Of a stretch of DNA of 64,000 bases, positions 2,251-61,654 are shown piece after piece; within the stretch, counting starts at the first letter, position 1, and the number at the start of each line of letters is the position of its first letter. Made by a program: the position numbers and the translations under genes. Below the pieces are notes generated by a model, which saw nothing but the letters and a program-made list of their open reading frames with translations, was not told the origin of the DNA and did no database searches. The DNA is taken from the NCBI RefSeq assembly GCF_000002075.1, contig NW_004797388.1, forward strand, positions 470,774-534,773. The letters are read 5' to 3'. Origin of the DNA: Aplysia californica (Eukaryota).

Positions 2251-2349
2251 CAGTTGTATGATAGTCGTTCTAGTTGCTGCCACCTCCAAGTGGAACATGC
2301 AACGGATGAAGTCGTCCGCCTCAGGCCTTGGATTCTCTGGTGCACTCAT
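2251..2349 (-). CDS. Putative first coding exon of an unknown spliced gene (paralogue A), MSAPENPRPEADDFIRCMFHLEVAATRTTIIQL
   Basis: Polypyrimidine tract and TTTAG acceptor (AG at 2355-2354), a 4-nt leader, ATG, 33 codons, then phase-0 CTG|GTTAGC. Homologous to the exon at 14124-14216. Confidence 0.55.
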
Positions 2350-2986
2350 TCTTCTAAATAAGAGAAAGAAAAACAAAATGAATAATACATTATATAGCAT
2401 TTTCAAGCTAGAGAGCCGACAGATTTCATTAAGATTGGCCTCACAGGTGAGTTCTTGTACATTATTATTTTGATCGAGTGAGTGGTTTTCAGAGAGATTC
2501 GTTCATCCAACAGGAAAGTTCAGATTTTGTGCTTCAAACATTACAATTTTCACACACTGATGATAATGCAGCCAATCACACAAATAATAAGAATAGGTTG
2601 AAGGGCCAAACAATACCTACCTACACTTTGTGGGTAAGTAAAGATTAAGTTCACGGGCAAAAATTGTAAGAGTATGCCTGGAGTGTTACAGAAAATATTG
2701 GCTTGGGATAGTCTTTGAAAATCAACGTTAACACTTCTACCCCAAAGAATGGGGCTTAGGAAGAAAAGACATAAATTTTCAGTTACAAATTAATCACTAA
2801 AAAAAAATATTCCCAAATGTAGTGACTCTCCGAACACTCAATTAACTCACAACACAGCAGCTGACATGACAACGACTTCGCATGGGCTTGCGAAGTGCTC
2901 AGATGAAAACACCGCCTCACCCAACTGTCCTACACAGCCAGTCGAGTAGAAAATTTCGGTGAGTAAAGACCTAGATCTACCTACAT

Positions 2987-4370
2987 TGGTGACCCCGACA
3001 AGTTGAAACGCAATTTCAACTTTGTTTATTCTGTCTTGGATTATATATTGAATCATATTTGAGCGGACTTGCATTTTCATCACAGCCCTTACCATCCCTT
3101 CAAAATGTGTGACCAAGATCATCAAGTAAGTGCAGTTTCGATTAAACTACTAACATTTTGGACAGCCGGGCCGAAAGCTTGGTTTGCGTAAACTGAAGCG
3201 CAATTCGCTCTGTGGAATATCACCCTAGACGAAACTAAATACTACCATGTTGTCGCCGCCCTCGACAACAGCACAGGTACTCGGGCATTTTTTCTATATT
3301 AAATTCAACAAATATAGCACGCTGAAAACATTTTTGTTATAATCGGCATATTGTTTGTCTGATACGGAAAGAGCATCAGCGCTCTTTAAACTACAGGGGT
3401 TAGGAGACCGTAAGCCGCCAGAGTTAATGGACTCCATGTTAGGCCTACTGGGAGCGCACGAACCGTGCTTCCTTTTCAGACACTTATACTTACAACAGTT
3501 GCCTGAATACGTAAGAGCCCCCCTGTGAACATTCGACAATCTCGACAGCCGCACGTCAGCACAAGAAACCAACAAATTATTCCTTGCCGTTGCTCCACCC
3601 GTGACGCTACTGGCTGTCGATCGCACAACAGCTGCTAGCAAACCCAGACCTTCCCACTCTACAGGTCTATGTTTTTACCGCCATAGATTCGGATCAAACG
3701 CCAAAAAATGCATTGCGCCATGCACTTACAAAGCCTAAAAAAACCCAGCTGCGGTTCAGGGAAATGAGTAGGTGGGTCAGCAGAATTCAGTCTGGCTTCA
3801 GAGCCTTCTGTTAGCCCACAAAAAGCTCAACTGATTAACATGGACTCTGTCTCTGGCCGTCGTTATTACATCATCGATACAGAAGCCCAGGTTTCGGTTC
3901 TTCCAGCAACATGAATGGTGGGACAAACAGGCGAACACTTCAGGCTCTCCACTTTTAGCCGCAAATGGTAGCACAATCAATACATATGGAGCACTCAACA
4001 CCACCATTCGTTTCCAAAACAATGATTTTGACGCCAGGCTTATTATCGCCGATGTAAAGCGGGCCCTACTTGGTGCCGACTTTCTTCGCAGCCACAACCT
4101 ACTGGTAGACATTCGTGGTCAGAAACAGATAGAGGCTTAATCTTTCAAAGTAAACCCTTGTACTATCAGTCATATTCTCAGGCAGCCATAGTGAACCCAG
4201 AAAGCAACAAATTTAGGAAGATATTTTTTAACAGAGTTTCCTGAAATCCTCAAGCCAACCTTTTCGGCCTCCGAAGTGAAGCACGGGGTTTCTCATTTCA
4301 TCCCCACCACTGGTCCACCCATACATGCCAAAGCTCGTCGACCACCCCCGGACAAACTAGCTACAGTCCG
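2987..4370 (+). mobile_element. Ty3/Gypsy LTR retrotransposon remnant, CsRn1-like (PBS, gag, protease, start of pol)
   Basis: PBS TGGTGACCCCGAC (tRNA-Trp type) at 2987. Gag reads GLGDRKPPELMDSM and LYLQQLPEYVR, with a degenerate CHCC knuckle CFYRHRFGSNAKKCIAPC. Protease region reads AANGSTINTYG and LLGADFL, then VKHGVSHFIPTTGPPIHAKARR. Multiple stops and frameshifts. Confidence 0.85.
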
Positions 4371-5728
4371 GCATAAAGCACGTTTCACTAAACGGCTCTT
4401 ACCGAATGTTTGCTATATAAATTACACGCCTTTAAGCACGTTAACTTCGCCTTCAGGCACGTTTCATTTACAAGACAAGACAGTCAATATTTTCAGGATG
4501 ACCCTTCGAGGTTCGAACACAGTCTACACCGCAACAGTGGATTCGAGTGTGTTAAGAGAAGCACAAAGAACTCAAGAGATGGAGACACACACTCACACGC
4601 GCGGAGAGGAAGACAGAGAGAGGCACACAGACGCCCGTGTGGACATAGAATCTCGCCTAGGGCAAAGCTACACACAGACGAAAAAATACAAAAAGAGTCA
4701 TGGACACGATATTATTTCATGTCATGTTGTAGGCCTGTATCATTCATTGTCCCTGGTAATCTGTGTTTACAAATAAAATCATCATCTACCGTTTATAATA
4801 CATGAACTACACTGAGAAGTCTTTCTTCATGATGATTTCATATTATATTTCTATGATATCCAGCAGCTGGGGCTACCACACTAGCTTCGATGCGGGGAAC
4901 GTTACGAATGTAGTAGCCATCGTTTCTAAATGATAATATAATAATATAGTAGTTCTGCCTGAATTGTGGAAGCTTTCTCAGTTTTTTTGATAAACCTCCT
5001 GGGATTTGACTCTTTTTTTTATGACGTCTTATCCGATCAATATTGGGTAGATCTAACTAGATCTAGATTAGATCTACAATTTTTTCTGACATTGTTTGCG
5101 CAAAAGGAGACTAGACGTAGTCTTGTTCATCTCTCATTCACATTCATTTGAGTTTCGAGTTTGAGCAAGTAAGTCGAAAGACGCTTGGATAATGTTCAAT
5201 AACAAGACGGCAGACGGTGCAACTCGATAATTAGTATTTTCTGTCCACAGTGTCGTCATTAAATAGAGATTCTAGATTTAGCCTACCTAAAAATATCATC
5301 TAGGCCAAGAGAACGTATAAAAGCTGCCTATGTTCGCTAGGCCTAAGTCTAATGTTCAGTGCTTCCAAGCGCGGCATCGAATCCCGGTCCAGGAAGGGTT
5401 TTTTTCCTTCTCCTGAGCCAAAAATTAAAAAAAAATAAAATAATTAGACTCACAGACAAAGGAAAGCCATTATTGAACTTTAATTTAACAAGGCCTAAGT
5501 TGGTAAAAGGAAAAGTAGGCTATAGGCTATACTAAGGCCTACTTTGTACAGGGCTCCTCTTGGGGACAAAGCCAGAATGTGCATGCTTCACCACTACATG
5601 ATAAAAAAAACAACTACAAAGCAACAAGTTATAATTATGGGAAAAATTTGTTGGTCAGTCGAGAAGAGGAAGAAAAAACCCAAAAAACTTGCAGGACCGG
5701 TATCGAACCCAAGCGCTCATAAATATAT

Positions 5729-6669
5729 CGAAGTGACTATTCGGACTCGAGTCCGAATATGAAAAAATGTTATTCGGACTCTGATTCTTGTCCAGCATGA
5801 CATCACTTCCGACTTCCTGTGACTCATGACTCCAGCTTCCTGTCCTGCCTCACTCGTGACTCGCCTCAGGCTGGGAAGAGACCGGGATCACTTTGGGCAA
5901 AATGGCGTTTTGTGCAGGAGCCGAGTCTTTATCTTATGATGAATTTGAGGCCGGCCTGAAAAGTTATAGCGCTTTTAATAAATGTTTATTTGTCAAGAGA
6001 TCATCAGAAGCAATTAAAGATGGCTTGTTAGCGTGTGTTGGGGCCGGATAGGCGGCCTGCACACGTGTGGCTGTGTGCGTGTCGGGGAGGGGGGGTGGGG
6101 GGGCACTATCGGTCCAGGCGTTGAACGTCGCATAACGCGTCAGTCTTTTTCCCCCCGGCAACTGACCATTATTACAATAATAAGCTAGTCTTGACGTAGA
6201 TCTACGCGTGTAACGAATTGTGCGCTGGTCTATGGAATCAAAAGTTGCCGTATGCTCAGCTCTACACAGCAACACAAGTTTTTCTTGGTAAACAATCGAG
6301 ATGACACAGGCTTGTGTATTTGAACGAATCTGTCTTATTTTTTTACACAGCTCATAATATGCACGTGCCATGTGATCTGTTAATCTTCAATTTTACCTTT
6401 TTCTCCAACAAAGAAAGTGAAAAACATGGGGGGTGGGGTATCAATGAGGCGGCGGGCATCGGATCAGCAGAAAAGGTGTGGGGGAAACTAAAAAATGGCG
6501 GAAAATGGGAAGCACTGAACGTTAGATCTTCTATAGAACGAAGACACTTCCTTTTTTGCGGACCCGAGTCCGAATAACATTTTTTCGTATTCGGACTCGA
6601 GTCCGAATAAGATTTTTTTTTATTCGGACTCCGAATATGAAAAAATGGTATTCGGACTCGACGACGGCC
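5729..6669 (+). mobile_element. Non-autonomous Mutator-like element
   Basis: ~44-bp inverted repeats (5738-5781 and 6566-6609) contain the palindrome TATTCGGACTCGAGTCCGAATA. A 9-bp direct repeat TAAATATAT lies at 5720-5728 and 6670-6678. From 5902, MAFCAGAESLSYDEFEAGLKSYSAFNKCLFVKRSS resembles the N-terminal domain of MULE/ZSWIM3-type proteins. Confidence 0.6.
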
Positions 6670-7389
6670 TAAATATATAGTGGTGTGGCTTCAGACACAG
6701 ACACACTGTCACTTCGGCCATCAGAACTTCCGTCATTGACGAAAGGTAGATTAAGCTTCATTATATAGCCTAGGCTAACACACAGCATTTTATTTAGCAC
6801 TGGCTGGCGTTAATCGCAAGAAAGTGGCTATTCTCACCCGCCCGGAAGTTCTCGCAAGATCAACTCCTCCCCTCTTCTCTCTCTCTCCGTCTCTTTCTGA
6901 ATACTGTCTATCGGTGTGGACGATCAAATTGACCAAAACAAAGTTAAAAAATCATGTTAAAACACAAAAGTAAATAAATTTGGTTGTCTGCAAAGATGCT
7001 ACGGCTATTTAACTTTTCGAATCGAGCCGAACTACGCGGGTCGCCATTTTGTTTTGCCCGGAAATTCTCGCGCTACTCCTCTCTCTCTTTCTCTCTCTCT
7101 CTCCACTGCCCACAGACAAAATTGTACGCTTTTAGTAAGCTACAATTGTAATGGAACGTTTGTTCACGGCACAGAATTCTACAATTTTTCTGTTATCACA
7201 GTGTAGAATTCTGTGGTTTAGGGTGAACGCAAAATTCGGTGAACGCGCACCGGGTGAGAATAGCCACAAGACTCGCCTGCACTATTCTCACTCCGGGTGA
7301 GAATAGAGGTGGCCTAATCGCAACGCGGCGTTTTATCTAGCACTGGCGCTAATCTCTACGCGGCGTTGCAAATAGGCACTTCCATTATA

Positions 7390-8040
7390 TTTAGATCTAG
7401 ATCTAGATATATATAATATAATATATAAAGCCTATACACATTAAATCCAGTTTCAATACTGATCTCTACTCTAGACTAAGGCACACAGAAGTCCAGCACT
7501 GAGCCTATAACTACAAGTGTACTAGAGATCTAGTGTCTAGTCTATTCTAGATCTAGATCTAGATTAGATCTAGATTCTAATATATTTATAACACTGGGTT
7601 TATAAGACCACATTCAATGATGTGACATTCAATTTTACAGATTCACAATGAGCTGATGAACCTGACCCTGACCTGAGAGGCTGAATCAGTAGATCTAATC
7701 TCGATATCTAGTTAATCTAGTATCTAGATCTATCTAGATCTAGATCAAAGAAAGAGTCTGTACTATCTTTGTCTAAATCTAGATATCTAGATCTAGATTA
7801 GATCTAGATCTAGATCTAGTCTAGATCTAGATCTAGAGACTAGAATCTCAAAGTGGCTAGCCGTACTTAGATCTAAATCTAGATCTAGATCTAGATCTAG
7901 ATCTAGGTTTGGCCCAATCGACTCAAGCCTGTTAAGTACACAGGTCTCATTAGATCCAGATCTAGAATCCAGATCTAGATTTTCTCTAGATTAGATTCTA
8001 GTTGTCTTAAATACCTTTCAACCCAGTAGTCTAGATCTAC
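7390..8040. repeat. (TAGATC)n-rich self-complementary simple repeat tract
   Basis: Many runs of TAGATCTAGATC, the longest at about 7866-7905 and 7780-7836. Confidence 0.9.
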
Positions 8041-11000
8041 AATTCAAGAATGTGAAGTCAGAAAGTTTGAGAATAATTTCACAGAATTCTACTCTGTGGA
8101 ATAATTTGAACGTCTGTGAAACAATTAAATTGACAACAACACGCTTCTTACTTCTTATTTGAATTCGTGTTTTCTTTACCTGGAATTCTACATGCCTGGA
8201 AAATATTTGGGAGATCGGAATTTCCCATAGGATCGATATAGATCTTACAGGTATTGACGAGAAGTGGCAACCCGACTACTTTTGGATGATCAGTAATTAG
8301 GCATTTGTTTTGGGCGTTTTGGAGGGTGATAGCAAAGGCAGGGTCTCTCAAAGGTAAAAACTTCTTAAAACTAGCTCTGTATTTTCGGCTCTCTCCACGG
8401 CATCATTTAGGACCTTTGAAGGTGCCCAATAATTAATTTGATATTCGGACATATAAGAGATAGGCCTATTGTAAGTAATTGAGCACGTATAGCGGGCGGT
8501 ATGCTGACATCAGAGTTAACCTCCTTTAACTCAAACTGATTATCAAAGTTCCTCTCTAAGCTTCAAAATGCTTATTTATATAGCCATTGCTAGGTCTCTG
8601 ATATTATGTTGTCGATCTTTACTTTTACCACGAGCAAGCAGATCATTCATGTTGTTGTCCCATGATAGGTAAAATGCACTGCCTATTTCAAATACGATAA
8701 ACTTTGTAGACCAATGAAAATCATAAGGTTCGTATTGTCGTGGTTTATCTGACGTGTCAATTGCGATTTCAAGTTGATTTTATTGTTCTATTGCGCGTTT
8801 ACTTGTCTACTGTTTGTCTTGTTCGTTAAGTTGCGGAAATATTCAAGTGACACAAGTAAGTATTCGCCCATTCACCAAAGATTCTCTCGGCGGTCCCAGT
8901 ATTCTATTAATAGGCCTAACTTCCGGTGTACTTCCCCCAAGCTTACCCTAGCCTTATAATATTTCAGAACTTTGTGCGTTACCAACAACCAGGAACAAAG
9001 CATCGAAGTACAATAATTTTAAAATTTAGAGTTTACACATCACGACCATTGGCAACCGCAAGGTTTTGTCGGGTCGTCATCTCTTTCGTCTTTTTTCCTT
9101 TTTGGCTCGACTCCAAATTAATCTTTCTTGAAACTAATAATGATTTAATTATGTAATATAAATGTGTCACATGTCGTAGATCTAGATTCTATCTGGAATT
9201 AATTTAGACGTTACCTTCTTAACCCAGTTTCAGGATGTGTTTCTCTCATGTAGTTTTCTGCAAATGATAATATTATATATAGATCTATCTATTACATAAT
9301 AATAATGATTGTGATGTATAAATTATTATCTATTTAATATTTTGTTTTGTACTTACAGAACTTATAGTGTGGTGTCAGTAACTACAATAATAGCCTAGAC
9401 GTAGTACGTAGATCTACTTATGCCCCAACCAAGACAAAGAAGTAAAAAGGGATAATAAGTATATATATTATAATATCATTTTGTAGTTTAATTATACACA
9501 CCCACCTCGTGTGGCTATCCAACTTGCACTGACTGGTGACAAATCTTTTTCACCTCGACTGCAACTCATGCTCACGAGTTCTGTCTTCCACTGTCCGTGG
9601 CTCGAGATCATGCCTCGGCCTGCCCTTTTGTTCTCGTCTTCAGTGTCAAATAGGTACTTGATTACTTTCTCGAACTAAACCAACTAACCGCACATTTCCA
9701 TTATTATTTGAATTGCCATGGAAAATAATTACAGGACTCTTGTCAGCCTGCCTAAAAATTTAAAAATAAGGAAAAGTTAGTTTGTGTGTCACATACACAG
9801 TGATTTTGATGATTTCCAAAGCTTGAGATGTCCTTTGAAACTACAAATTTACGTCTTTTGAACCTGCTGTGATCAATGTTTTTTCAATAGAATCCACAAA
9901 GAAATATATGTTTTTAAAGAGACATAAAAGGTGTTGTGCCCTATGAGCAGAAAAATATTGGTGTCTTCGATTATTACCAGTATTTTGAGGGGCAGTATTT
10001 AGCTCTGAATTCACGTACCAAGCTACACACATAATATTGATGATACTTGTATGATATGATGGTTCTTGATTTAGGTTTAGATAAAACAAAATGTAAAAGT
10101 CTTTCTTTATCTATTGATTTTCGGATAGTAAAAAAGACATAAGGTAGAGCGCCCGTTTCTGTAAACTGCGAGGTATAGGCCTACGGTCGTGCTCATTATA
10201 ACCTCTTGAAATTAGTTGCCAAAGGGAACTTTCTAAAAGTAGCAGTTGGTTCCTATGGTTCAAAAGTGAGCCTGACATGCAGTGCCTATACATCATAAAT
10301 GGCAAACAAATAAAGATTTAGAGGGGATACTATTTATCTTTTTCGCCCTGTGTGCTAACACATATGCCCTTTTTGCAACCAATGTTTGCCCTTGGTGCAA
10401 CAGTCTGCCTATCTGCTACCTTTGTGAATTGAATACAACAGATGTTTAAAGATACAGAAGAAATTATCAGGTAAAGAAATTATATCATTTGCTTTTGAAT
10501 TAAAAGATCCCAGCGTGGGCTTATAATAATAATAGAGCTGAAAAAAATTGAAATAAAATTAGGGCTGAAAACTGAAAGTTATATTTATGTGTTAGAAATC
10601 TGCATGCGGTCGCGTGAAGGTGTGTACATTCAGCATGTGTGTCAGCACACTTCCTGTTCAACAGAGATACAGATTAGGCCAACGCGGACAGCTTTCAGTG
10701 TTCTGCAAAATTTAGGTCCTGAGGAAGCTGCATAGAAGAGCAATTATATTTTCCCTTGCTGATGCCATTTTTGTGTTTGCTCTACGAATTCTTCACTATG
10801 TACTCCATGTGTGTATTTTGAATACAAAGAATGTAATATAAAAGAAAAAATTCAGTATGTGCGTTTTTTTGTTTTTTTTCACTTTGTGCCTGCTAGACTG
10901 ATCTTTATGATTATTTAAACTACATTTACGTCTGCAAGTAAGAGGCTAATGGTATTGCTCCACAAAACTAGCAATGGTATGATTTTTTTGAGGGAGGGGT

Positions 11001-11924
11001 GTTTTCCTTATTATACAAAATTACAAACTAGAAATATAAATTCTAATTGTAACTAACGTGACTCTAGGTTAGATAGAATTATTCTGGCTTGACCCAAAAG
11101 GTTTTTGCACCTTGGTCCGTAAAACAAATCACCTTGCCCAACCCGCAACAGCCTGGTTGCATATATTGGATAGGGCTTGGGTGCTTGTACCATATGCCCA
11201 TGGTGCAACCACTAACTTTCTGCTGCGCTGTCTTTTGTACTGCAAATGCTTTTCACAATCAGTTGCAAATAATCAATGACTCATCTTGAAGAAAACAATA
11301 GCATTGAAAACTTAATCCTTTTTTGTTGTTGTTGTTGTCTCCCCTTGAACAACTTGCCTAAAAATCTCACAAACCAAGTTTTTCAACAAACATTTAAAAA
11401 AATATTCCAACCAGCTTCAATAAAAGGGGAAATGAAAAAGGAAGTGGATTATAAGTCAACATATATATATTATACACACTTTTAAACTTCAAATCCTGTA
11501 TTATTTTACAAATGGATATGATCATATCAACCAAAATATCAAATGACTCTGCCTAAGCACACACGCAAGCAGCTTACCAAAAATATGCTGTCTCAGGATG
11601 GCCACTATGAAAACGGAGAGATTGCAGATCAGAACTAAAAATATTAATTAAAAACCCTTTAAAACGGTACGTTTTATTTTAAAGAGTCAGAGCAATAAAG
11701 AAAATAAGTTATGGTAAACTGCCCTGGGTGCAACAAGACCTAGGGGCAACAGTTTTCACCATCTTCGAAAATAAAGCAAGTTGAGCTGAGTGAAAAAAAA
11801 AATTAACAGAGCACCTTCCCTTGGGTTGTTGTTGACGTATCTATTGATAATATCTTAAAAGTATAGATCTTCAGCTTTTGTTGTTTTTTTGTATACTTTG
11901 TAAAATAAGCAACTTTCCCTAAAT

Positions 11925-13580
11925 TTTAGGAGCATTACAAGTCCTAAATAGTTGATAATAACTTCCAAAAAAACTAACAAACAAATGTTGCATTTCGTGG
12001 GATTCGGTTTTATTGTAAAATCCCTTCCTAGTGTTAGAAAAAAAGTACAACAATTGATTTGAAAATGTGCATTTTACGACCCATGTATGTTAGGAACGTT
12101 ACTGGACAAGTAATGCTAACCAAAGCAGACAAAAAAAGTTTTCCTGGCTCCTGTCAGAAGAAGAGGATTCGAACACAGTATTTATTATCAGTCAGGGCAA
12201 ACTTAAAACTGTATGATGGTTAAAAAAAAGAGCAAGTAATTTGAGATAGAATATTATGAAAAGGGAGCATTTAATTCCTGTTAGGACTATTACCGGACAA
12301 GCAAATGAAATGGAAAAACTCTAAAAGAGGCGATTTATCTCATAGTTATAGATGCAAAACATACATTTAAACAAAGGGCAACTAACAACATTATAAATAT
12401 GACCTGAAAAAGAAACAAACTAATGCATATTATTATTAAAGCGGAAGAACTGATTTTTTTGTTAGGATAGTTACGGGACAAACAATTTAAACAGAAAATG
12501 TGCTTAGCCTGAAATGTCTGAAAGAAATTTGAGCATAACTTGTGCTAACACTGAGTATCAACTTAAAACATAATGATATCGCAGATAACTCTTGGAGCAG
12601 GGTATTTGAAAGTTAAGGGGAAAGGAGCTGTTAGGAACATCACCGAAAGCAAAAGAAACTTCCTGCAGGGGACATTGAGATAGCTCAACCAATTAAATCA
12701 CAGTAAAGATGAATAAAATGAAATAAAGAAAAGCATCATAATGAAATGTCAAAATTAATCCCAAAAATTCCAAAGTGTTAGGAAGGTAACAGATTTACTT
12801 TCGCGTGTAACCAACCTTCCTATCAAAGATCAGATTACTTCTCATAACTCCGAGAACGCTTTGGTTGAACACGAGTGGGGACCAGTAATGTGGGGGTTTT
12901 CTATAACATTTTGTGAATTTAAATGGTGCTGCATTTTAAGTATATCAGTTTTTGAATTAGAACCATTGTCAGATAGATTACATGGGACAAGATCGATGTT
13001 GTCGTCCAAATTCACATTCTTCGGTACTAAGCCTAAGTTCTCGTTTTCTTTGCACTTGCACTAAGAGCCGACTGTAAATTGCAGTGTATTTAAGCATTCT
13101 ATGCATCTTAAAAGTTTCATAACTTGATGAAATCATAATAAAAAGAGAAAAAACGTTAACCTCGTGTTAGCAACATTACATTATGTTTGGAACATAACAA
13201 GGCTAACAACAGCAGACGACGCACTGAAACAACCTGTACAGAGCCCCTCAATTTGGCAAATGACGCCAAAGCAGGCAAACAAAAGCTAATAGCAAAAGCA
13301 GTTTCTAAAAATAGTGATCGGAAACTCCGTCTATGATGAAGTTAGTGCAGAAACAGAAGTGCAGGAACATTACATCTGGACGACGCACGTATGGTGTTAC
13401 AAGTACACGAAAACGCCGAAAATCGGGCTGAAATATTGACAAATGGTTAATGCGTGCCAAAACACTTAAAGTCAGAGATATGAATGTGGGAGAAAGCTAT
13501 TTGGCAAAACTCAATTCAAAATGTGCTACTAGCGTGTAAGGACCATAGCAAAATGGACGATGCTTGTAATGTTTCTAACG
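11925..13580 (+). repeat. Array of TGTTAGGA-N3-TTAC(NGGACAA) motifs with unique spacers
   Basis: Motif starts at 12088, 12279, 12460, 12629, 12776, 12967 (degenerate), 13165 and 13360. A weaker copy is at 11925 and an inverted copy at 13565-13579. Confidence 0.6.
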
Positions 13581-14123
13581 TGATTTTTAGTCTAGTCTCA
13601 CCGCAGCAAAATAACATTTCAGCACCTTTTTGGGGGATGGGCAAAGAAGTTTAACACTAGATCTCCCCGAATCTTTAGTTTCAAGCCATCTTGTCTGTTT
13701 TTATAGGTGTACAGGAGTGTTGAAAAAGTACAAACGTATTCTTGTAACAAAATGGTACTGATTTTTAGGCCTTTTTTTCTAGAAAAACTATTTTAGTTTT
13801 TTAGCTAGAAAGGTGCAACCATCCTTATGTTTATGGGAGCTTCCTGATATAAAATTTCACAAGACGTATTGCTCCAATGTGGTTGCAATAGAATGCATTA
13901 CAACTTTGAAACTAGAACAGGCATAACGTAACTAGAAAAGTGACCCCTACTATGCTTATTCTATGGATGAATTTGTGAAAATGATTTACTCAGCTACAAT
14001 ATTAAATTGTTAGAAGCCATCTTGGGTAGACTGGGCATATATGTTTTTTGCCTAACCTACTATCTCTCTAGATGAAATTAACTTTATTAATTTTCAACTC
14101 ACTCATTTTTGTTCCTCAGAAAA

Positions 14124-14216
14124 ATGGATCCTTCAAAAGACGCGGAGGCTGAAGTATTCATACGTACTGAGTTCAACCTACAGATGGCAAGGCATAGAAC
14201 AGTCACTATTCATCAG
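14124..14216 (+). CDS. Putative first coding exon of an unknown spliced gene (paralogue B), MDPSKDAEAEVFIRTEFNLQMARHRTVTIHQ
   Basis: Acceptor TTTTTGTTCCTCAG (AG at 14118-14119), a 4-nt leader, ATG, 31 codons, then phase-0 CAG|GTTTAT. 11 of 24 residues are identical to the exon at 2251-2349. Confidence 0.55.
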
Positions 14217-15326
14217 GTTTATTTTTGCCCTGTAGTTGTAAGCTATAATTTTGAGAATGACTAACAATTCAAGTTGTGGACTTTTCTTCCTGTATATTTA
14301 ATTTTCTGTTTTTTCTACGTGTTTTCATTTTGCTCCGTCAAAATATGAGCCTATACCAGTACGTTGAGGTCACTTAGATTAAACGGAAAATAGTGGTAAT
14401 CCAAAAGTAAACAGATTCCCTGGGGGTTTTTTTCTTCTTTGTCTTTGTAAAGAAAACGACCTAGATCTTTTTGCTGAAATGGTCCTATTTCTAAACTCAA
14501 AAAAATTTTGAGGTGTAAGTCATTTCTTCATAAGCGACTCCTCCAGTAACTCACTTCGAAATAGCGAAACAGTTGAAAGAGACAAAAGAACATAGTGTCC
14601 ACGAGGGCCAGAGAGAGGCTTCAATATTTGTTTACCTCTCTTTTTCACTCTTATCAATAGGCCTACAGACTGTGTACAATGGTACTAGGATGCGTTCTAA
14701 CTTCTCTCGTGCAGAGCATAGTACAGTGCTGTGTACTGAGGCTGACCTAGTCCTCCTTTACTCCCTGCAACTCTAATTGCAGTTACTGAAAGAGGTAGAT
14801 GAGTTAAAGAAACAAACAAAAAGAAAATAACTAAAATTGTAGAGTGTGATACAGGACTAATCTGAATAGCCCAAGTCAAGCCCAAGAACGAAGGAACATA
14901 ACTCAGTATATATTATAATTCTTGGGTTTTGATGATGAATTACTTTTTCTTTAGTAGTAATTTAGTGTGCATTTTATTTGAGCAGTCTCTTTAAAACCAA
15001 AAATACAATTAAACCAAAGAAAATCTGGTAGTCCAGTCCAGCAGATTTCGATTTAAGTGATCTCAGCTATAATTTTAAAATGAGATGTTGTGTTCTAGAG
15101 GTAGGCTATGCAGGTAACTGCGATGGTAACTTCTTAGCTTGACCTGATGCATATCCCATAATTCTCTGTTTATCCAGACATCAAAAGGAATTTGTTATTT
15201 ATGAATATCAGATTTGTCAACTATGTTGAGTGCACAATCACATCATCAATGGTTCTATTTCTTAACATGTGTGAGAATACTGCTTAAAGTGGGCAAAGAG
15301 TATGCCTGTTTAAGCCAATTGTTCTA

Positions 15327-16151
15327 CAGTGGAATCCTGTTATAACGAGAGGGAGGGGACCGGTATGAAATGTCTGTTATAGCAGGATTCTCGTTGTAAG
15401 TGATCCAGTAATAAATTCAAAGGAAATAATAAAGTAGCCATAATCTATGAGTTTGGCGTTCTGTTTATTTCTTTTCGTTATCTCCTCCGATGATGGCTTT
15501 GTTCAACATGACCTTTAGGTCTTACTTGATCAAAAATTAAATCAGGTTTCTTTCTCTATCGTTAACGATGTTGACAGCTCGGCGTTGGCTATCAGAACGA
15601 AAGTTCTCTAGGCTATCTCGCCCGCTGTGTTTTCCCCCACACCACCACACCCTGTGGTGCGTTCCCGCGTCTGCTTGCGCACGTCACACATTCGCTCCAT
15701 GATCCATCACAGCACTGTGACTTCTTCATCCCTGCATTGGAGAAGTGAGAGGCATGATAGGTATCTAGGCCTAGATAATCTAGACTAGGCTGGCCTATCA
15801 CTATCAGGCAATGCGTTCGGCTTCACAACGGTGTGTCTGCGCATGCCACACCCTCCCCACTCATTCGCTCCGGCCTTCATCGTTGGCAGACATGGGCTCT
15901 CCCATTCTTTGTTTCGCTTGATAACCAACAAGTTTCTCAACTGGCGAGGTTTTACATTATGTATAATTGGCCTCCGCGGGGAGCACAGCAGCAGCAATAT
16001 TCCGCTATAACCGACTCGCGTGTTTGTCTGATTGCGCTATAGCAGTATTTTATTTACAAAGATAAAGAAGGGAAAAAAACAGGGTTTTAGAATGATGTCT
16101 TTATAACAGACTTCTCGTTGTTTCAGGACTCGTTTTAAGTGGACTCCATTG
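15327..16151. mobile_element. pogo/Tigger-type non-autonomous DNA transposon
   Basis: TIRs CAGTGGAATCCTGTTATAACGAG and (reverse complement) CAATGGAGTCCACTTAAAACGAG, with TA flanks at 15325-15326 and 16152-16153. Confidence 0.7.
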
Positions 16152-16204
16152 TATCAAAATTTTAGATTAATCCCTACTAAATATGAAATGAACTGTGATA
16201 GGGT

Positions 16205-16245
16205 ATCATCATCAGGGCATCATCATCATCATCATCATCATCATC

Positions 16246-16299
<54 letters not shown>
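16205..16299. repeat. (CAT)n microsatellite, probably the tail of a minus-strand LINE fragment extending to about 16590
   Basis: About 27 CAT units at 16218-16299. It explains the poly-Ile ORF at 16195-16422. Confidence 0.9.
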
Positions 16300-17258
16300 T
16301 ATCTCACCCTATACCAGGGTATAGATAGACCAAGGACAAACACTTTCCGTTATCTCCTATTTTTGGCTAGCTTCTTGACAACATTCCAAACTTTCCATTT
16401 TCCTGCATATCATTTCCCATGACTTTTCTCCCAGCTTTGTCCACTGTCTTTCACTTTCATTGGTCCTGCTGGTTCAGAAGCTCCTCTGTCTCACTTGATT
16501 CCCAAAAAACATGTTTTTACTTGTGTTTCTGTCACTTTTTGTTGTTGTTAATGTGTCCGGATGGTTTGTCCTGTGCCCACTGGCTCTTTCCAGCAGACCA
16601 GACTTTTACATGGTATAGATGAAAAAACAAAATAGATATTTATTAAAAATTATATGGCGGTTTGAATGAAAAAAGAGGAGGGACACTTTTGGGGTGGTTG
16701 CTGTATTTTTATCATTTTTAAAATTTGCAAATTAGGCTTTACACCGAAATATCAGTTGTAGTGTAGGATGAATGATTTGCAACTAACTTACCTTTGAGAT
16801 CCTGTACTTGTAGGGGACACAAAGTTTCACTGATTTTCTGTTTCAAAACCTTTGGTTCACTCATAATATTCCGAGCCATTTGGGGACATTATAACATAAT
16901 TTTCACTGTAAAACTTGTACATATATTAGCGTATGATTCCAATGAGAGTGCAATACATATAGGCCTACATGTTTAAGCCAAATGGATGGAGGACTCGACT
17001 TCTTTACTATTTTTATGTTCTGTCTGTCTCTTTTGCTTAATCTCAACATTACATGGCCCATGTTGCATCTATGTAGCCTGCTTCTGTTTATGCCAACAAA
17101 CATGTGAATGAATCATATTCCAAAACTATGATTTGTTAATATTTTTTTTTCAATAATAAGTGCTGATGTTGGCAATACAAAAATGAAATGAGCAAGACTA
17201 TTTTCATGGGCATATGGGAAGTGAGATTTAACTTGTTTCTTGTTTTTTTTTATTTCAG

Positions 17259-17315
17259 GCGGACTGTGGCATGGACATTTTGATTGGAAATTTGAAAAGT
17301 GACTTATCAAACCTG
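17259..17315 (+). CDS. Candidate second coding exon of paralogue B (ADCGMDILIGNLKSDLSNL)
   Basis: Strong acceptor TTTTTTTTTATTTCAG, 57 nt open in phase 0, donor CTG|GTTAGT. In frame with the 14124-14216 exon. No homology support in the window. Confidence 0.4.
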
Positions 17316-17560
17316 GTTAGTAGCCTACATAAACCGTTAGCATCATGAGATACTTCTCAGATTCGAGCCATATGGAAATAGAATACATCTCGCTTATAGG
17401 TGAAGTTTTTACAATTTATAAGTATGAAATAATAAAAGACAGGTTATAGTTTTAAAAAGTGGCATCAATACAAAATCTTCAATTTAACCCTAGTGTAGAT
17501 TTTTGACCTATATCTCCATTTGCGGATTGCGAGAAGTAACTCATTTTGTCAGCAGGCCTC

Positions 17561-17562
<2 letters not shown>

Positions 17563-17606
<44 letters not shown>
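17563..17606. repeat. (TA)n microsatellite
   Basis: Read directly from the sequence. Confidence 0.95.
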
Positions 17607-17607
<1 letters not shown>

Positions 17608-18265
17608 TGTTATCATTAGAGGAATCAAAAACATTTATTCAAGCTTCAGCTTCCAGTTGATCTTAATATGGCATTATATTTATACACTTGTGTGTTTGTG
17701 CCCATCTTTCTGCCTGTGTCTTGCATATATATATATATTATATGTGTATGACCCCTTCAAAAGGGGAGGGCAGAGAAACTTGAAAAATATTGTTTAAATT
17801 TTTTGCTTCAGTTTGTATCAATAAACAATCTACCTGATTCTTATAAGTAAGTCTTGCAGTATTTCTTTCTTTCTTTTTTTTCTTTTTTTTTGGGGGGGGG
17901 GTAGTGATTTGAACATCACAGGGCTTGCGATAGTGGCCTTTTGCACATGTACCTTATCCTGAAGATTTTTACCATACACGCTGAATGCTGCGGTGACAAC
18001 TTTTACATGTAAGTAGAGTTTTTTTTGTTCTAAAACGTAGTGGGTTTGAGTCTCCCTCACATGCTCTGGAATAGAATCCTTTAATCCCAGTGCTGAGTTA
18101 GATATATCAATCATTTTGCCTTTAAAAACTCTTCTCCTTTGTCTAATCGGACACAGATTTGTTAAGCTCAATGCCATGTACATGCTGTATAATATGGATT
18201 TTTAAGATAAGATATGATACATCTTTATTGTCCAACTGGCACATTAGTTTGGTGTTTCACCATGA

Positions 18266-18286
18266 ACACACATACACACACACACA

Positions 18287-18324
<38 letters not shown>

Positions 18325-18335
18325 TGCACACACAC
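18266..18335. repeat. (CA)n microsatellite
   Basis: Read directly from the sequence. Confidence 0.95.
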
Positions 18336-21021
18336 GCAGTATGCTTGCAGTCGTAAACAGGGTCCTGTTATCACCGTTATCAAGGGAAACAACCCGTACC
18401 ATTGCACCTTCAGCTTACTATATTCGATTACTGCAGATCCTTTTCCATTGGGCTGTTTTTGCTGTCACCGAGTCGGAATCGATCCATGACCCAAACACTG
18501 GGGGGAGGGGGAGGGGGGGGGGTTAGTATGTTTGAAAGTTTGTGTTTAGGCAAGTGATCATACTAACAGGCGAAATGTCTTGGTTGAGACAAATTTTTAT
18601 AATTTGACAGATTGAAAACAAGTTCATGCACTGCAAGATCACTGTTATACCTGAGTCTGTGCAATTTGAACCCTATTATAGCCAGGTTTATACATCTTAC
18701 TTACACTTATAAAGAAAAAACAAAAAACGGGGGATTTGATTTATCACAGTTATATCCAAGTTCCTGTAATAACAGAGGCTGTTATAAATGGACTAGACTT
18801 TTCTTACTTTACTTTATCCGTTATATTGTACGCCTAGGGCGTCGAGGGGAGAAAGAGCTTTTTGTCTTTCGCAAGTTTGATGGCCTGGCTGGGTGGAATG
18901 TTGTATGTTTTCAGGGTATCCTTCCCGGCCTCAATAATAAGACAGAAAAAACTAAAGAGAGAGTTACAAGTGGTCATTCGTTCAGGTGATTGTCTTTGAC
19001 AGGTGTTCCTTCAGAATCAGAGTAGGTTTTTTAACTGAATTTTGAATCTCCACTCATATACGTTAAATACTTCTCCACAGTTTGGTGAGCCAAAGAATCA
19101 AGTGTGGACTCACAGGAACAGAGTCTTGGAGAACGAAAAGACTTTCAGACAGTATAATTTTGACTACCATCATGATGACAGGAGACCACTGAAAGTTCAT
19201 GTGCGCTCAGTTAAACATTTTGAATAGAGAATGCTTGTTGGTTCTCATCATGTTAGGGAGCTGGGGAAATTTTTACAAACATTGTTTTGTACATTTTTTC
19301 TTCTTTTTTTTTTTGGTGGGGGGGGGGGGGCACTTTAACACCTTCTAATATTACATTATTTTTTTTTTACAGGATGCAAGAAAAGAAACATTTAGGAGAA
19401 AATTATGTAATTGTTAAAGAAGCTTTCAAGATTTTAATAATAAAAAACACCAGTTCTGTACTTTATGCAAAGCATTGTACATGTAATGAAACCAGGCACT
19501 CATCCAGATAATAAAATGGAAGATACCGGCATTTTTTTAGCTGGTTTGGAAGTTTTTATCTAATTTGTGGGGGGGGGGGGGAGGCTCAACACATTTTATG
19601 TCCATTTAAAAACATATTCTGTGTGGATCATACTGAAAAGTGTTGTTAAAGGCACAAAAAATGTGAATTTTCCGTTTCCGAGGACACGCAAGCTTAGAAA
19701 GTCACCAAACTTTAACAACCATTTTCTAGATATCTATACTTTTACCTCTAAAAGGAGGCCAACCCTACCTCTTTAATAAATCGTAAATATCTTGAATTCT
19801 ATTCAAATAATAGAGAGGTATTTTTTTCATCAAAAGCAAGATCAATGAACAAGCTTTAAGGTGATACAGATACCTTCATATGCCCTAAAAGTGACGAGCG
19901 CCTGATTCCATCGCATCATTACATATATTATGCGTTGTATTGATTTTCATCTCCGTTGGCTTAGTAGGCCTACTTAGTATTCCCTGATCAAAACATGACT
20001 AGGTCTTACAGCCTGTAGCTTGCGCCTGCAAGTTTTGCCACCTAAGTATGTGATTTTTACAGAAATGAAAAGTAAACGCAACAAACGTCATTCTCTAAGC
20101 GTGGTCAGAACTAGTACATGTACCTGTAGACTACCGTCACATCTGGCAAGTTGAGACGAAATCCACAATCAACTTCTTTTTTTTTTTAAAGCAAGATTTT
20201 TACCGCTTAATGAACTGATTTGAGACACTTTTTTATTTTACTAAAAGCGACAAAAATGGTTAGCCTTTCTAGACAATTCTGAACATACCCTGTGTGTGCC
20301 ACTCAAGTTTTTTAAACGGTTCACATGATTTCTTTTGTGATGGTCGAAAGCTTGCTGGTTGTTCTGTCCATTCTTGATTATTTGTGTAAGCCATTTGATT
20401 TTGCTTCAATGTTCTTCATGTTTAAAATCTGTCCCTCTTTGTTGAATTTGAAGCTGTATTATAAGTATGGTTTGACACTGATAAAAATTAAAAAGCAGCT
20501 CCTGAGACTAGAATACAGATGTGTACCTGAATGAAACTATTGTTGGCTATTTGACTTGCTGAAACAAAATTTAACAAGATAAGATCGTGCAATCTGTTGG
20601 ATTTTTTTATCATTATACTGGCAGTTTTTTGAGTGCCGATATTTGTTTTGTTTTTTTTTCACAACTGATCTTAAGTTACTTTTGAAATTATTATCATTTG
20701 ATATATATAAGTTTGCCTTGTATTTTGTTTTTTAAAAATTGCTATGGATATGTAGTGTTTAGTTCAAAAATTGTAAAAAGTAAAGGATGAAAATTCAAAA
20801 TGGATTTCATTATGCAATAAATATCAGCTTAATAGTCCTTCTTCAACTTTATCTTAAACAAAACAAAATATCTAAATAAAAATTAAAGGCATGAACTCAG
20901 TGCATTCCTGTTCCTCTCCACTCCCTTTCGTTTCCAGTCTGACCCTCTCCTCTGATCGGCATAAAAATGGGAGAGAAACGAATTTGACATGTTTTTGTCT
21001 CCTCTCGCTTTCCGTTTTTGA

Positions 21022-21990
21022 ATGAAAAGAAGACGCCGCGTCCCAAAACGGTACTGGACACATATAATTTTTCAACGAAGAGGTGATTTTGGAGAATATC
21101 ATCATCTTCTGTGTGAAGTTTTAAGGGACGAGGAAAAGTGTTTTTCCTGCTTTGGGATAGGACCTAAAACTTTTCAAACCTTTCTTCATCTTATTAGACC
21201 TCATATTGAGAAAAGAATGTTGAATGTGTAAAGAAAACAGAATGCTTGGTAATATCCAAAAAAGCAGCAAAGCCTAGTTGTAATCTCATTAGCAAAGGTG
21301 AAAAGGTCGAACAAGTCCAACAGTTTAAATATCTAGGATATATGATAACATCTGATGCCAAATGTTCCACAGAAATGAAACAGAGAATTACAATAGCTAA
21401 GGCTAGTTTCAATAAAATGAGCCCAATCCTGAAAAATAGAAACATCTTGATGAACACCAAAATGAAAGTCCCGAAATACTATGTTTGGTCAGCCCTTCTA
21501 TATGGCTGTGAATGCTGGACAATCACTAAAGACAGTGAAAATAAAATAGAAGCAACAGAAATGTGGTTTCTTAGTTAAGAGACTGCTAAGAATATCGAGA
21601 AAGGAAAAGAAATCAAATGAGGGAGTGTTTGATGAAACCCACGAGGGACGCTCAATGTTAAAAACAATCAGGAAATGACAAATGCAGTTTTTGTGACATA
21701 TAAATAGACATGTGTCTTGAACATCTAGCTCTCACTGGCAAAACTGAGGGCAAGCGAGGCAGGGGTAGGCCCATGACAACATACTTAGGGAACCTAAACA
21801 AATGGATAACAACAGGGAAAGATCAGGGAAACGTAGCTTTTTTGAGAGCATCCGAGCAAAGGAATGAATGGAGAACCATGATCGCCGATGTCTGTTGCAG
21901 ATCTTGCACTGAAAGATGATGATTGAAAAAAGAACAACACATTTTTGCTAGTCGTTATCTTCCAGATAAAGACTTGTTATCCCTCTACGA
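21022..21990 (+). mobile_element. PIF/Harbinger transposase N-terminal remnant, interrupted by an RTE insertion
   Basis: RYWTHIIFQRRGDFGEYHHLLCEVLRDEEK...LIRPHIEK (to 21217) resumes at 21922 as IEKRTTHFC*SLSSR*RLVIPLR. Confidence 0.7.
21218..21921 (+). mobile_element. 5'-truncated RTE-clade LINE with target-site duplication
   Basis: VEQVQQFKYLG, LLYGCECWT, IEATEMWF and GKRGRGRP motifs, a (GAT)3 tail, and a 13-bp TSD ATTGA(G/A)AAAAGAA at 21205-21217 and 21922-21934. Confidence 0.85.
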
Positions 21991-22710
21991 TAAGTTATAC
22001 ATTGATTATAGATGATAGAGCATGACTAGGCCTACATGCTGCGAGAGAACTGGTAGAAATTATAGTTGCGAGATAAAACATTCGCGATCGGCTCAGCAAC
22101 TGGGTTCAGCAGGAAAAGGAGAGGAGAGCGAGAGGGGTGCACTCAGTTTCTGGTGATGAGATATATAATATGAGCACAGAATTCTACACTTAGTGTAGAA
22201 TTCTGTGGTCAGGTGATACCGGTTATTTTGAGGTATTTATTAACTTTTTAGGATGGAGAGCAAACTGTTTCTACTAACGCTGTGCTCCTTGTGGAACTAA
22301 CTAATATAATCGCAGTCCCAGGATGGGGTTGGAACATTTGGGGTTTCTGCAAACTGTCAGCTTGTGCGCGTATTCAAACAAGTAAATAGTCCTTCTGGAG
22401 ATGAACATAAATGTCGGAGGTCCCAGCTCTTAAATAACGTAATAGTTTTGATAGTAGCCTTAAGCCTATACCATTTCGCCATCAATTTCAAACAAATCAA
22501 TGCCAACATCTAATTAATTATAATTATGGTCGGATGGGTGTGTGAAATGTACGTCAAGTGTGCAATCCACACTTACTTTTATGTAAATACCCCCCCCCCC
22601 TTTTTTTTCCACGTGCCAGAGACTGTTATAACTTATAGAGATAAATCGCTGTTACTCACGATGTTATGACAGGCAACCAATTTTTGTTCTTGTTGCTTTT
22701 TGCATTACAG

Positions 22711-22761
22711 GCTCCTTTTGAAAGAAATAAAGGCACTGATAAGTGGGAACTGTAGGATTGG
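22711..22761 (+). CDS. Candidate internal exon (phase 2-2, LLLKEIKALISGNCRIG), possibly of paralogue B
   Basis: Good acceptor TTGTTGCTTTTTGCATTACAG and consensus donor GG|GTGAGT, 51 nt. Its connection to other exons is not established. Confidence 0.25.
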
Positions 22762-24539
22762 GTGAGTTAGGGAAGGGGTGGGGATGGACCAAAATGTCAG
22801 TATTATTGTATGATTGAAAAGCACATGACCAGCAATCAGTAGAAAACCATACCTGTCGTCATGGCAGTCCTCTGCAGCTAAGACTAGATCTAATCATGCT
22901 CACCTTGCTGGTCTGATGTGAGGGTCAGTTGTGGGGTGTAGTTGAGGTTCATGCGTTAAAAGTAGGCCTAAAGCCAGGATTATATTTTTATCTTATTATA
23001 GTAGGAAGTGGTCATTTGTACAGGTGATTGTCTTGGCCAGGGGATCGTTCTTGCTGGTTCGACTGTGTTTCTACTTTGATTTAAAAAGGATTTTACTTAA
23101 AAAATTGTCTAGATTTTTTTTACTTAGTGACTTAGTAATTTCAGTACGAATAGCATAGAAGTCAAATTTTGCTAAATTCTTAATAAACTGTTTTACCATG
23201 CAGATCGAACTTGAGATCTTTACTGTAATAATATACCAAAGAAAGGTGAATTTTTATGCCTGTTTTTTCTTTTTCTCAAGCCTAGTGTTCTTGAATATTG
23301 CAGCAGCGAAAAGGAAAAAAAGTCAGAGTCCTGAGCATCTTTTTTTTTCCCCTTTTAAGCTGCCTCATAATGGAATATTTTAAAAGTCATTTTCTGAAAG
23401 CTTATCCTTCAGACCCCTATGCGCTTTGAAGTGCGGTAAGTTTTTACTGACGTCTCCAATTTCACCGACCATGAAGTGCAAAATAATCCCGAAAAGATGA
23501 TCCTTATATTATATAATAACCAAAATTTCTGCTTTGAAATATATATGTTCACCATATGTCAGGTTTCATCAGAGCTGCACACATTCCTCTTTTGACGCGA
23601 TATAATACTTAACGTATATCGTATGTCAGCGCGGTTTTATGCGCACTAAAAAAATCTGAAATAATGCAAACTGAGCCAAAAAATGTGAAATTATGCGATC
23701 TTGTTAATTTTAACAAAGAATGATATAGGAAAATAATCAGAAATTATGCCCCAAAAAAATCAAATTTTACTTAATTATGCGGGGTGCATATAACCCCGGG
23801 GACAGGTATACAATTATGCTCAAATTATTATCTTGTTTAATACTCTGTTGATTAATTCGTCGAAACAAAACTGATTGATTGTAACTGTCATACTTATTAT
23901 GTGAATAATTATTTACGCCCCCACTGACACAAGAAAGATGGTTAAGGAGGCAACATTTCCTGTTGGTGCGTGTATTGAGAGACAGAAATACTTACTTTCT
24001 CCTTGCGGGAACAAAACTCACATCTTTTTGCTTGCACTTGTAGAGCCGAATTAAAACTAATTGTTACATCACAGACAACTACAAGAAAAAAAACAAACAA
24101 CATACATGATAAAAGAAACAATCAAGTCGTCTTGCGAAAGATGTTTAAAGTAAAGCAATGTTTTGCTGCATACATAAACACGATGGCTCCCCCCCCCCCC
24201 TCGAACTTTAAATGACCAATGTTCACCCAAAGACAAAGAAAGGGCCCTGGCCATGCTATAAGGTTACTAAGCTCAGGCTCTCAGCAATGTCAGACTTATG
24301 TTGGTTTCTCATCTAACCATGGTTTTAGTAAACACTACAGTACTTCAGTGTGATTACCAGCTTTCATATTGGCTTGTATCTTTTTGAATTTGTACACTTG
24401 TTATTTCTTTGCATAGACAACACATAGATCTAGATTCTATAATTTCTACCATCTGTATGCTTTTGATATAATATGCCATTATAAAAAGCGTTTCCAATAG
24501 AGGTCAAATAGAAGTAATACAACAATTTGGAGCAGAATC

Positions 24540-26470: not shown

Positions 26471-27136
26471 AAGTAAAGCATTTTTCCACTCCACATTATA
26501 ATAACATACGAGGTAAACAAAGTAGTTTATACTACGCCTGCTCATTACTTAATTTGGTTGCTCTTGTTGTTCTTATAGTTAGATGTTGTCCCACGGTGGT
26601 TGATGGATGCTCTAGTGCGGTTTGCTCCTTCTTTCCTATCAAACATCTGTCATCCTTATGTCCTTATGTCTCCTCCTCCTTTTTTTGTGTATGTTACTCT
26701 GTTGTAACACCGCTAATCTTCGGCACTTTTATGATCTAATCGTTTTGCAAGTTCCGAAAACTCTTACTCAAACTAAAATCTAAAATGATCATGTTCCAGG
26801 GCTAAGCGTTGACGTGCCATGGTTCACCAACCTAATCTTTCCTGTGCCATTGTCATGTACATGTACACAAATCCTATATAAAATAGTGACTTACCGCTGG
26901 GGTCTTGGTTGTTGTTTCTGTCGGTCTGTCTTACTTTTTGTCTGTACACTAAATGATTATACTTGTGTCGATGTGCTTCTTCTTACTCAAACAAACAAAA
27001 CAAACAAATCCTTATTTACGGTAAACCACCGTGTCTCAAATTAATGTGTACAAAATGTGCTCTCAATTTAAAACTATGAAATGCAGTGTGAGCTTTCTGA
27101 CAGCTCTCAAGAGTTCTTTCTGGACTCCCAAGTACA

Positions 27137-27490
27137 ATGAGTGGCGTTAGTAGCCTTGTGGTTAGGCACTCGGGCTCACAGCAGACATGTTATGGGTTCG
27201 AATCTCGTCAGGGTCCTGGCGTTGTCCTTGAGGAAGGCACACTACTCGAATTTTCCTCACTTCCCTCAGGTGGAAATGAGTTCCCGACTGTAGAAAGCGA
27301 AAAATCTTGTCAGTCAGTTAGTGTTTGAGCGCTTAATCAGCTGCTTGCGCTGTATGCTTTCTTCGAAGCTGAGAATGTTTCTGAGTATTCTTGGGTTCGC
27401 TGTGGTAATAATAATATAGAGTATAAGGCGCCCAGAGCTCGCTGTCGAGCGGAGATATGCGCTAAGCAAAATGTGCTATTTATTATTATA
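27137..27490 (+). mobile_element. tRNA-derived SINE with CORE-like central domain
   Basis: A- and B-box-like head (GGTTCGAATCTC), collinear with 62360-62690, and an ATT-rich tail. Confidence 0.7.
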
Positions 27491-27499
27491 TACTTATGT

Positions 27500-27826: not shown

Positions 27827-27828
27827 TA

Positions 27829-31802: not shown

Positions 31803-31828
31803 CAATATTAAATAACAACAACAACGAC

Positions 31829-31861
<33 letters not shown>

Positions 31862-31941
31862 TAATAACAACAATAACAACAACAACAACAGTAATAGTAA
31901 TATTAATAATAAAAGTTGAAAAATAAATAAACAATAATAAT
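31803..31941. repeat. (AAT)n/(AAC)n compound microsatellite beside an assembly gap
   Basis: Read directly from the sequence. Confidence 0.9.
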
Positions 31942-46984: not shown

Positions 46985-46994
46985 ACTTATGGAT

Positions 46995-61644: not shown

Positions 61645-61654
61645 TTCCATAAGT

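Follow-up and report, generated by a model that had tools for sequence, protein, structure and literature searches.

Few stand-alone ubiquitin-like proteins (UBLs) without a Gly-Gly tail have been described. Among them are pTINCR and UBL5/Hub1, small proteins of ubiquitin fold that lack Gly-Gly and bind their partners non-covalently (PMC10006087, PMC9652315), and in the pTINCR paper UBL5 is the sole other protein of this kind that is named. Here we describe two genes in a 64-kb stretch of Aplysia californica DNA (G000:C118:470774-534773, referred to as the window and numbered from its first letter): gene A on the minus strand (RefSeq LOC101862493) and gene B on the plus strand (RefSeq LOC101862720), both labelled uncharacterized. 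The reading that we favor, and consider on balance probable, is that these are duplicated head-to-head genes, likely with a shared promoter, whose products have a predicted ubiquitin fold, are not conjugated, and pair through strand beta2.

The A/B family resembles pTINCR and UBL5/Hub1 in that its members are single-domain and without Gly-Gly, with structural Z scores of 9.9 (7mrj) and 10.4 (4pyu), and an N-terminal extension is also present in pTINCR. The differences are that sequence identity is 11–13%, that the A/B family is multi-copy, fast-evolving, and named only in euthyneuran gastropods, and that it has an acidic (EAE) rather than a basic N-terminal arm, together with HxA(D/E)C and QxW motifs of its own. 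The Z scores of pTINCR and UBL5 lie within 2 of those of many UBLs, and both proteins are absent from the top 60 of 405 family-profile matches.

Gene structure and transcripts of A and B

Genes A and B are paralogous, and in each of them phase-0 introns separate three coding exons. The first coding exon of A (2353-2251, minus strand, 103 nt) has a 4-nt leader, AAGA, an ATG at 2349, and codons 1-33, encoding the N-terminal arm, beta1 and most of beta2; that of B (14120-14216, plus strand, 97 nt) has the leader AAAA, an ATG at 14124, and codons 1-31, which include most of the predicted dimer strand. Exons 2 and 3 of A lie to the left of the window on the minus strand, at G000:C118:467770-467714 (57 nt) and G000:C118:465254-465111 plus a TAA stop, as placed by mapping of the RefSeq protein. 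In B, exon 2 (17259-17315, plus strand, 57 nt) encodes the end of beta2 and helix alpha1, and exon 3 (19081-19227 to its TAG stop, coding 19081-19224, plus strand) runs from beta3, with the QxW motif, to beta5, without a Gly-Gly tail. The RefSeq protein of A (P0011, 100 aa) matches its three exons letter for letter, with AG/GT ends, and RefSeq isoform X8 of B (P0008, 98 aa) corresponds to 14124-14216, 17259-17315 and 19081-19224; B's third exon as a query returned the RefSeq proteins of LOC101862720.

The original prediction, made from the letters of the window, had picked out the two first exons as a pair of common architecture, and their coordinates, leaders and donors are borne out by the sequence. 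Each has a pyrimidine tract, an AG, an ATG and a GT donor that follows the same aligned codon. Over the last 24 codons the ungapped alignment gives 11 identical residues, five of them through synonymous codons, as had been claimed (43/72 nt identical, BLOSUM62 score 46). Of the window's 36,033 stop-free frames of 24 residues, A is the one that matches B best apart from B itself (score 46, next 31), and the likeness is therefore beyond chance; tblastn within the window gives E values of 0.014–0.017. The flanks are indeed unlike, with 19/50 nt identical upstream and 13/50 downstream in ungapped comparison. A search to the left of the window, which had been recommended, yielded exons 2 and 3 of A, and the DNA to the right of B matches that to the left of A in both: the second exon pair is seen in a tblastx piece with 16/25 residues identical, and the third scores 113 over 42 residues. 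The RefSeq exon mapping, these exon pairs and the splice joints described below agree with the prediction of a spliced, protein-coding, duplicated family in divergent orientation. The genes are not hidden, both having been annotated in RefSeq, and their family is not unidentified, since RefSeq models exist and it is ubiquitin-like by profile, Pfam and predicted fold. Nor are these micro-exons, a term normally kept for exons shorter than the ~100-nt exons seen here. A high-copy non-coding repeat, which by the prediction's own account would undo it, is rejected along with a retrocopy, as the B protein matches the genome only exon by exon and at two loci only.

Splice joints were surveyed in four public runs, of which X5, X18 and X6 come from three studies and are stored as contigs, and X23 consists of reads. 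The coding joints of B, 14216-17259 and 17315-19081, on either side of exon 2, are present with GT..AG ends in three of the four runs (X5, X18, X6). Contig depth at these joints is 65–213, compared to ~4–22 for intron contigs, and this pattern, together with the absence of an intronless genome copy, argues that the contigs are transcripts. Joints of A and B occur together in runs X5 and X18. Two differences from the window were seen in run X6: a T>C at 19220 that would turn B residue 97 from Phe to Ser, and a C>T at 19234 in the B 3′ UTR.

Both genes also have a non-coding leader exon with its own joint. The A leader (8015-8175, minus strand, 8175 being the outermost letter observed) has a choice of two donors, of sequences GTAAGA and GTATTT; use of the one after 8015 gives joint 2353-8015, present in run X18 at depth 27.9, and use of the one after 8152 gives joint 2353-8152, present in run X5 at depth 14.9 and in X23, both with CT..AC ends. 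The B leader (8976-9007, plus strand, 8976 being the outermost letter observed) is joined by 9007-14120, with GT..AG ends, at depth 89.4 in run X6. The leader letters observed contain no ATG in either gene, and this favors translation starting at the ATGs of exon 1.

The leader exons of A and B lie head to head, with at most ~800 nt between their outermost observed letters (8176-8975), although further upstream exons are possible. The spacing of the pair is thus less than 1 kb at the leaders and not the 11.8 kb that the first coding exons imply. As the leaders end within ~800 nt of each other, A and B are likely to be driven by one bidirectional promoter in this interval. It contains one ETS-like CCGGAAG site, at 8920, where 0.12 are expected, and other motifs are near background. 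Divergently paired genes are those with start sites less than 1 kb apart (PMC12672016); the outermost leader letters observed for A and B, on opposite strands, lie within this distance, and here the partners are paralogues. On the plus strand at 8850-8970, a consensus donor (GTAAGT, around 8857) and a TTTCAG that resembles an acceptor (around 8967) suggest an extra upstream exon of B, for which no joint is among 15 of the 27 joints.

RefSeq models also give B alternative upstream exons on the plus strand, one at 9568-9655 (isoforms X1, X3 and X5) and others with coding beginning at 10442, 13333 and 13450; these are known at the level of models. Residues 22-31 are missing from isoforms X5 and X9, and isoforms X1, X2, X4, X6 and X7 have seven residues added after residue 31. 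No joints of the alternative upstream exons, or of the isoforms that alter residues 22-31 or insert seven residues, occur among the same 15 of 27 joints.

The first intron of A contains nested palindromic ATTCGGACTCG repeats at 5738-5781 and 6559-6661 and a long TAGATC-type palindromic array at 7400-8000. Reads from elsewhere pile up on 6716-7292, and the palindromes are likely repeat elements.

A family named in euthyneurans, with a predicted ubiquitin fold

An HMMER scan of 1.84 billion representatives found 24 matches at E≤0.001; it used one query sequence, so that other molluscs may well hold relatives farther removed. The family alignment contains 22 sequences, 21 matches and B, with a B isoform not counted twice and two proteins left out, a repeat protein and a poly-ubiquitin-like protein of 1020 aa (P0020) with ~13 diverged ubiquitin-like repeats. 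All named members are from euthyneuran gastropods (Aplysia, Lymnaea, Candidula, Bulinus, Arion, Physella and Biomphalaria), where 20 matches were looked up and one more was named, six carry no organism label, and P0024 was outside the look-up. Members are single-domain proteins of 90–120 aa, save P0024, a fragment of 67 aa, and mean column identity is 34%. Several are labelled 'Ubiquitin-like domain-containing protein' in UniRef. The tags of two Biomphalaria glabrata members, P0022 and P0032, adjoin (BgiMline_031101 and _031103), which suggests clustered members in that genome.

A Pfam search with B alone gave no match to PF00240 and nothing useful; among the 22 members, 15 are recognized by PF00240 at E≤1, the strongest at 5.6e-9. 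The family profile matches ubiquitin at ~2e-5, FAT10 at 3e-8, and also ISG15 and Elongin B chains. Judged by these profiles the sequence signal of the family is closest to ubiquitin-type domains, and ubiquitin, FAT10 and ISG15 match it over the helix and C-terminal half (E 3e-8 to 3e-5). Unlike these type I modifiers, the family has no Gly-Gly and no conserved Ile44 patch, a longer beta1-beta2 hairpin, and a single domain.

The AlphaFold2 model of B made with the family alignment has a predicted local distance difference test (pLDDT) score of 85.6 and superposes on ubiquitin (1ubq) with a Z of 11.8 and a root-mean-square deviation (rmsd) of 1.6 over 75 aligned residues; many UBLs are tied with ubiquitin and Elongin B in structural Z. 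Atlas structure searches with A and B reached ubiquitin-like clusters at 0.91. The A/B family is therefore predicted by modelling to adopt a beta-beta-alpha-beta-beta-beta ubiquitin-like (beta-grasp) fold superposable on ubiquitin. The fold covers residues 11-98 of B, which ends directly after it. None of the 22 members, the fragment P0024 included, has a Gly-Gly within the last eight residues, and the products of A and B thus likely act without conjugation. Membrane-anchored UBLs (MUB/UBL3) are marked by a C-terminal CAAX cysteine; no member of this family has a CAAX end, and a Cys is found in the last six residues of 1/22 members, at position -2.

Conservation sets the family apart from ubiquitin at several sites. 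The position of ubiquitin Ile44 is variable (F in six, Y in five, S in four, T in three members), and a Lys occurs at the ubiquitin K27 position, mapped through the profile match, in 21/22. The QxW motif is invariant (22/22), as are I40, L43 and W59, with F17 and C34 nearly so; aligned with ubiquitin, these five residues probably occupy core positions. Family-specific polar residues are E8, H30, D/E33 and D46. In beta2 the conserved columns are G25 (13/22), T26 (17/22), I29 (14/22), H30 (17/22), A32 (17/22) and D/E33 (19/22).

A third Aplysia copy, C (LOC101851868), lies on contig C202 and agrees with A and B in its two phase-0 introns and its middle exon of 57 nt. Pairwise identities are 42/98 for A-B, 32/93 for B-C and 34/91 for A-C. 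On the family profile A, B and C score 61–97 bits, and A scores 73 bits when left out of the profile. Three copies is a lower bound for Aplysia. No further copy was found with P0010, P0017 and P0022 as queries or with the family profile over 291 kb around A, B and C; exon 1 of A or B alone matched only itself in the Aplysia genome, and word-indexed homologue searches returned only B isoforms or seven proteins already in the family set. One further candidate, L042, was rejected as a different UBL (18 bits, without QxW).

We found no paper naming the LOC identifiers of A, B and C or five accessions, and a keyword search of titles and abstract starts found none on the family, although supplements, which were outside the search, may list the genes. 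Our verdict is that these are annotated genes for which no description in the literature was found, and that they encode stand-alone, probably non-conjugated UBLs that look restricted to one lineage. If this is true, a multi-copy family in Aplysia, Lymnaea and the schistosome vectors Biomphalaria and Bulinus would indicate that new non-conjugated UBLs continue to arise in animals. We regard its importance as moderate: both genes are annotated, relatives are automatically labelled ubiquitin-like, and no process is tied to the family.

Divergence, predicted pairing through beta2, and rival explanations

In the best tree A and B are sisters (93/91, unstarred), with a branch of 1.35 for A and 0.23 for B; no branch of this tree is starred, 12/18 inner branches are open, P0024 was left out as a fragment, and duplication dates are loose. 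The pair had been called an old duplicate, but A and B being sisters within Aplysia, it is likely among the younger ones of the family. The ratio of nonsynonymous to synonymous change (omega), in fits that are rough at 57–91 codons, is 0.25 (counting) or 0.39 (maximum likelihood, ML, p = 0.10) for A versus B in exon 1, and 0.66 by counting over the whole comparison. A and B against C give 0.14–0.18 (p<0.001), and a three-branch fit gives 0.69, 0.61 and 0.08 (p = 0.02 versus one ratio). Both frames stayed stop-free in 0.8% of neutral simulations, in which indels were ignored. The picture is of an older, constrained family in which the proteins changed fast once A and B had duplicated, through relaxation or positive selection.

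The modelled B-B complex scored 0.59, compared to 0.01 for the best of three controls, and its runs share at least 95% of contacts with a pLDDT of at least 82. The interface is an antiparallel beta2-beta2 arrangement of residues 24-33 with 49-52; it coincides with the conserved columns of the signature strand, and is mostly the stretch of exon-1 likeness that had been flagged in the original prediction. In calibration, the mark for this score was reached by 21/30 solved pairs and 0/23 single chains from microbes, and by 17/29 pairs (7/16 in animals) and 0/30 single chains from eukaryotes.

We propose that B pairs with B by sheet extension through the exposed beta2 strand. Because both genes are expressed in the same runs, an A-B heterodimer would also be possible, and is plausible from the layout. 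Such a dimer may serve as an adaptor or small module for binding, confined to a particular tissue or stage, with a partner presumably held by the family-specific surface residues E8, H30, D33 and D46; partner binding would be non-covalent, by analogy with pTINCR. Following an inverted duplication, both copies would have diverged quickly in protein sequence with the fold kept. Loss of residues 22-31, as in isoforms X5 and X9, or the seven-residue insertion would, from the sequence, alter the beta2 dimer strand. A more elaborate version, in which a euthyneuran dimerizing UBL family uses A and B, driven by one bidirectional promoter, as co-expressed subunits (B-B, A-A and A-B through beta2) and the alternative donors in the first coding exon of B switch off or reshape the strand, strikes us as unlikely.

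Several observations weigh against the reading of A and B as a paired, non-conjugated UBL duplication. Over 91 codons, omega for A versus B is 0.80 (ML, p = 0.52 versus 1), indicating weak constraint, and in exons 2 and 3 it is 1.48; the purifying selection seen by the original prediction thus stands for the kept frames and for the comparisons with C, and is not supported for A against B. Folding of the single sequence failed (pLDDT 37). The dimer model is of B only, and A differs at interface positions T28 and H30. Among eukaryotic pairs without an older solved relative, 1/7 reached the mark for the complex score, so that the B-B score may reflect memory of solved ubiquitin-fold complexes. 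The RNA status of runs X5, X6 and X18 is a guess or unrecorded, and contigs give neither start sites nor expression levels. The coding joints of A lie outside the surveyed stretches and rest on the RefSeq model, and its leader joint is represented by one read, of 2353-8152, in X23, the sole raw run surveyed there. Three raw poly(A) runs from a single study give the exon-1 bin of B depths of 0, 0 and 0.15. No B joint was listed in the three poly(A) runs over 13001-33000 (likeness 92), where repeat reads dominate; given the near-zero depth, expression of B is likely limited by tissue or stage.

A credible but still unlikely alternative is an Elongin B-like adaptor of a ubiquitin ligase that is specific to the lineage or to a tissue; its beta2 edge would bind Elongin C, a Skp1-like protein or another strand partner, the homodimer model then reflecting a sticky edge. 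Elongin B, which likewise stands alone and is not conjugated, contacts Elongin C through an edge strand and, like the A/B family, has a longer loop ahead of the last strand. It gives the longest structural match to the B model (Z 11.9–12.0, rmsd 1.7, 81–82 aligned) and a profile match of 2e-5 over positions 27-87, although its Z is tied with that of ubiquitin and identity is 15%. In Aplysia, moreover, a canonical Elongin B exists apart from the family and differs from it in its introns: its exon L044 spans beta1-beta3, lacks both family introns and has no family-profile score, a comparison that covers that one exon, located by a motif. With no common intron and a low score, Elongin B was rejected as an evident parent of the family.

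Improbable in our view is a role in immune or stress signalling that evolves fast, where these proteins would modulate ubiquitin-binding proteins or act on them as decoys; one such case would be competition within the linear ubiquitin chain assembly complex (LUBAC) by a HOIL-1/SHARPIN UBL in free form. The QxW motif, with its Trp in beta3, is common to the Aplysia RBCK1-like UBL; the Atlas structure matches include RBCK1 and sharpin (template-modelling score 0.70–0.71); the HOIL-1/RBCK1 and SHARPIN UBLs have Z scores of 10.7–10.9 (HOIL-1L 10.9); and the evolution of the family is fast and multi-copy, as its column identity and the branch omegas of 0.69 and 0.61 attest. These UBLs, however, are domains of large ligase subunits, and the RBCK1-like UBL scores 11.2 bits on the family profile, compared to the scores of A, B and C and to up to 35.8 for generic ubiquitin-like repeats. 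Its intron is four codons off that of the family (two codons after the LK motif rather than six), and no family member has a LUBAC-tethering motif (LTM) of HOIL-1/SHARPIN type. Lacking a common intron and with a low score, it too was rejected as an evident parent. The Aplysia RBCK1/SHARPIN-like exons (L035/L038, G000:C136:1183097-1185830) themselves have an LTM match at E 0.39, followed by the UBL.

We regard as distinctly improbable a structural role in cilia or sperm, comparable to that of the UBL in a radial-spoke protein; it would account for the rapid divergence as well as for expression being restricted. In the wide structure search the first-ranked match is the human ciliary doublet 8j07, chain c2 (Z 11.9, rmsd 1.4, 75 aligned), a range that we take to be the UBL of IQUB, but the match is tied with FAT10, ubiquitin and others. 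Expression of A and B differs sharply between runs, in keeping with such a role, and ciliary non-conjugated UBLs exist, FBB18 being a precedent (PMC11962417).

That either copy or both, and A in particular, are in decay with little constraint left on them is very improbable: A versus B is indistinguishable from an omega of 1, omega = 1 is unrejected on A's branch (p = 0.46), and that branch is the longer by far, but the 91 aligned codons are ungapped, splice sites and exon lengths are kept between unalignable flanks, the frames are rarely both stop-free under neutrality, and A is spliced and scores well on a profile built without it.

Other features of the window and its surroundings

Broken retrotransposon protease/reverse-transcriptase-like frames were noted by eye at 3835-4400, 21210-21900, 40634-42354, 53127-54406 and 58277-58738. 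Two long open frames, L008:2767-4833 (689 aa) and L009:6789-8675 (629 aa), lie ~64–70 kb to the left of the window; the first has weak zinc-ribbon matches only, and no such matches were listed for the second in the domain search. Two GILT (thiol reductase, PF03227) genes, at 46295-47026 (minus strand) and 61562-62344 (plus strand), are 92% identical over 820 nt; each is one uninterrupted open frame that carries a CxxC motif and what looks like a signal peptide. They constitute a second inverted, divergent duplicate pair in the same 64 kb.

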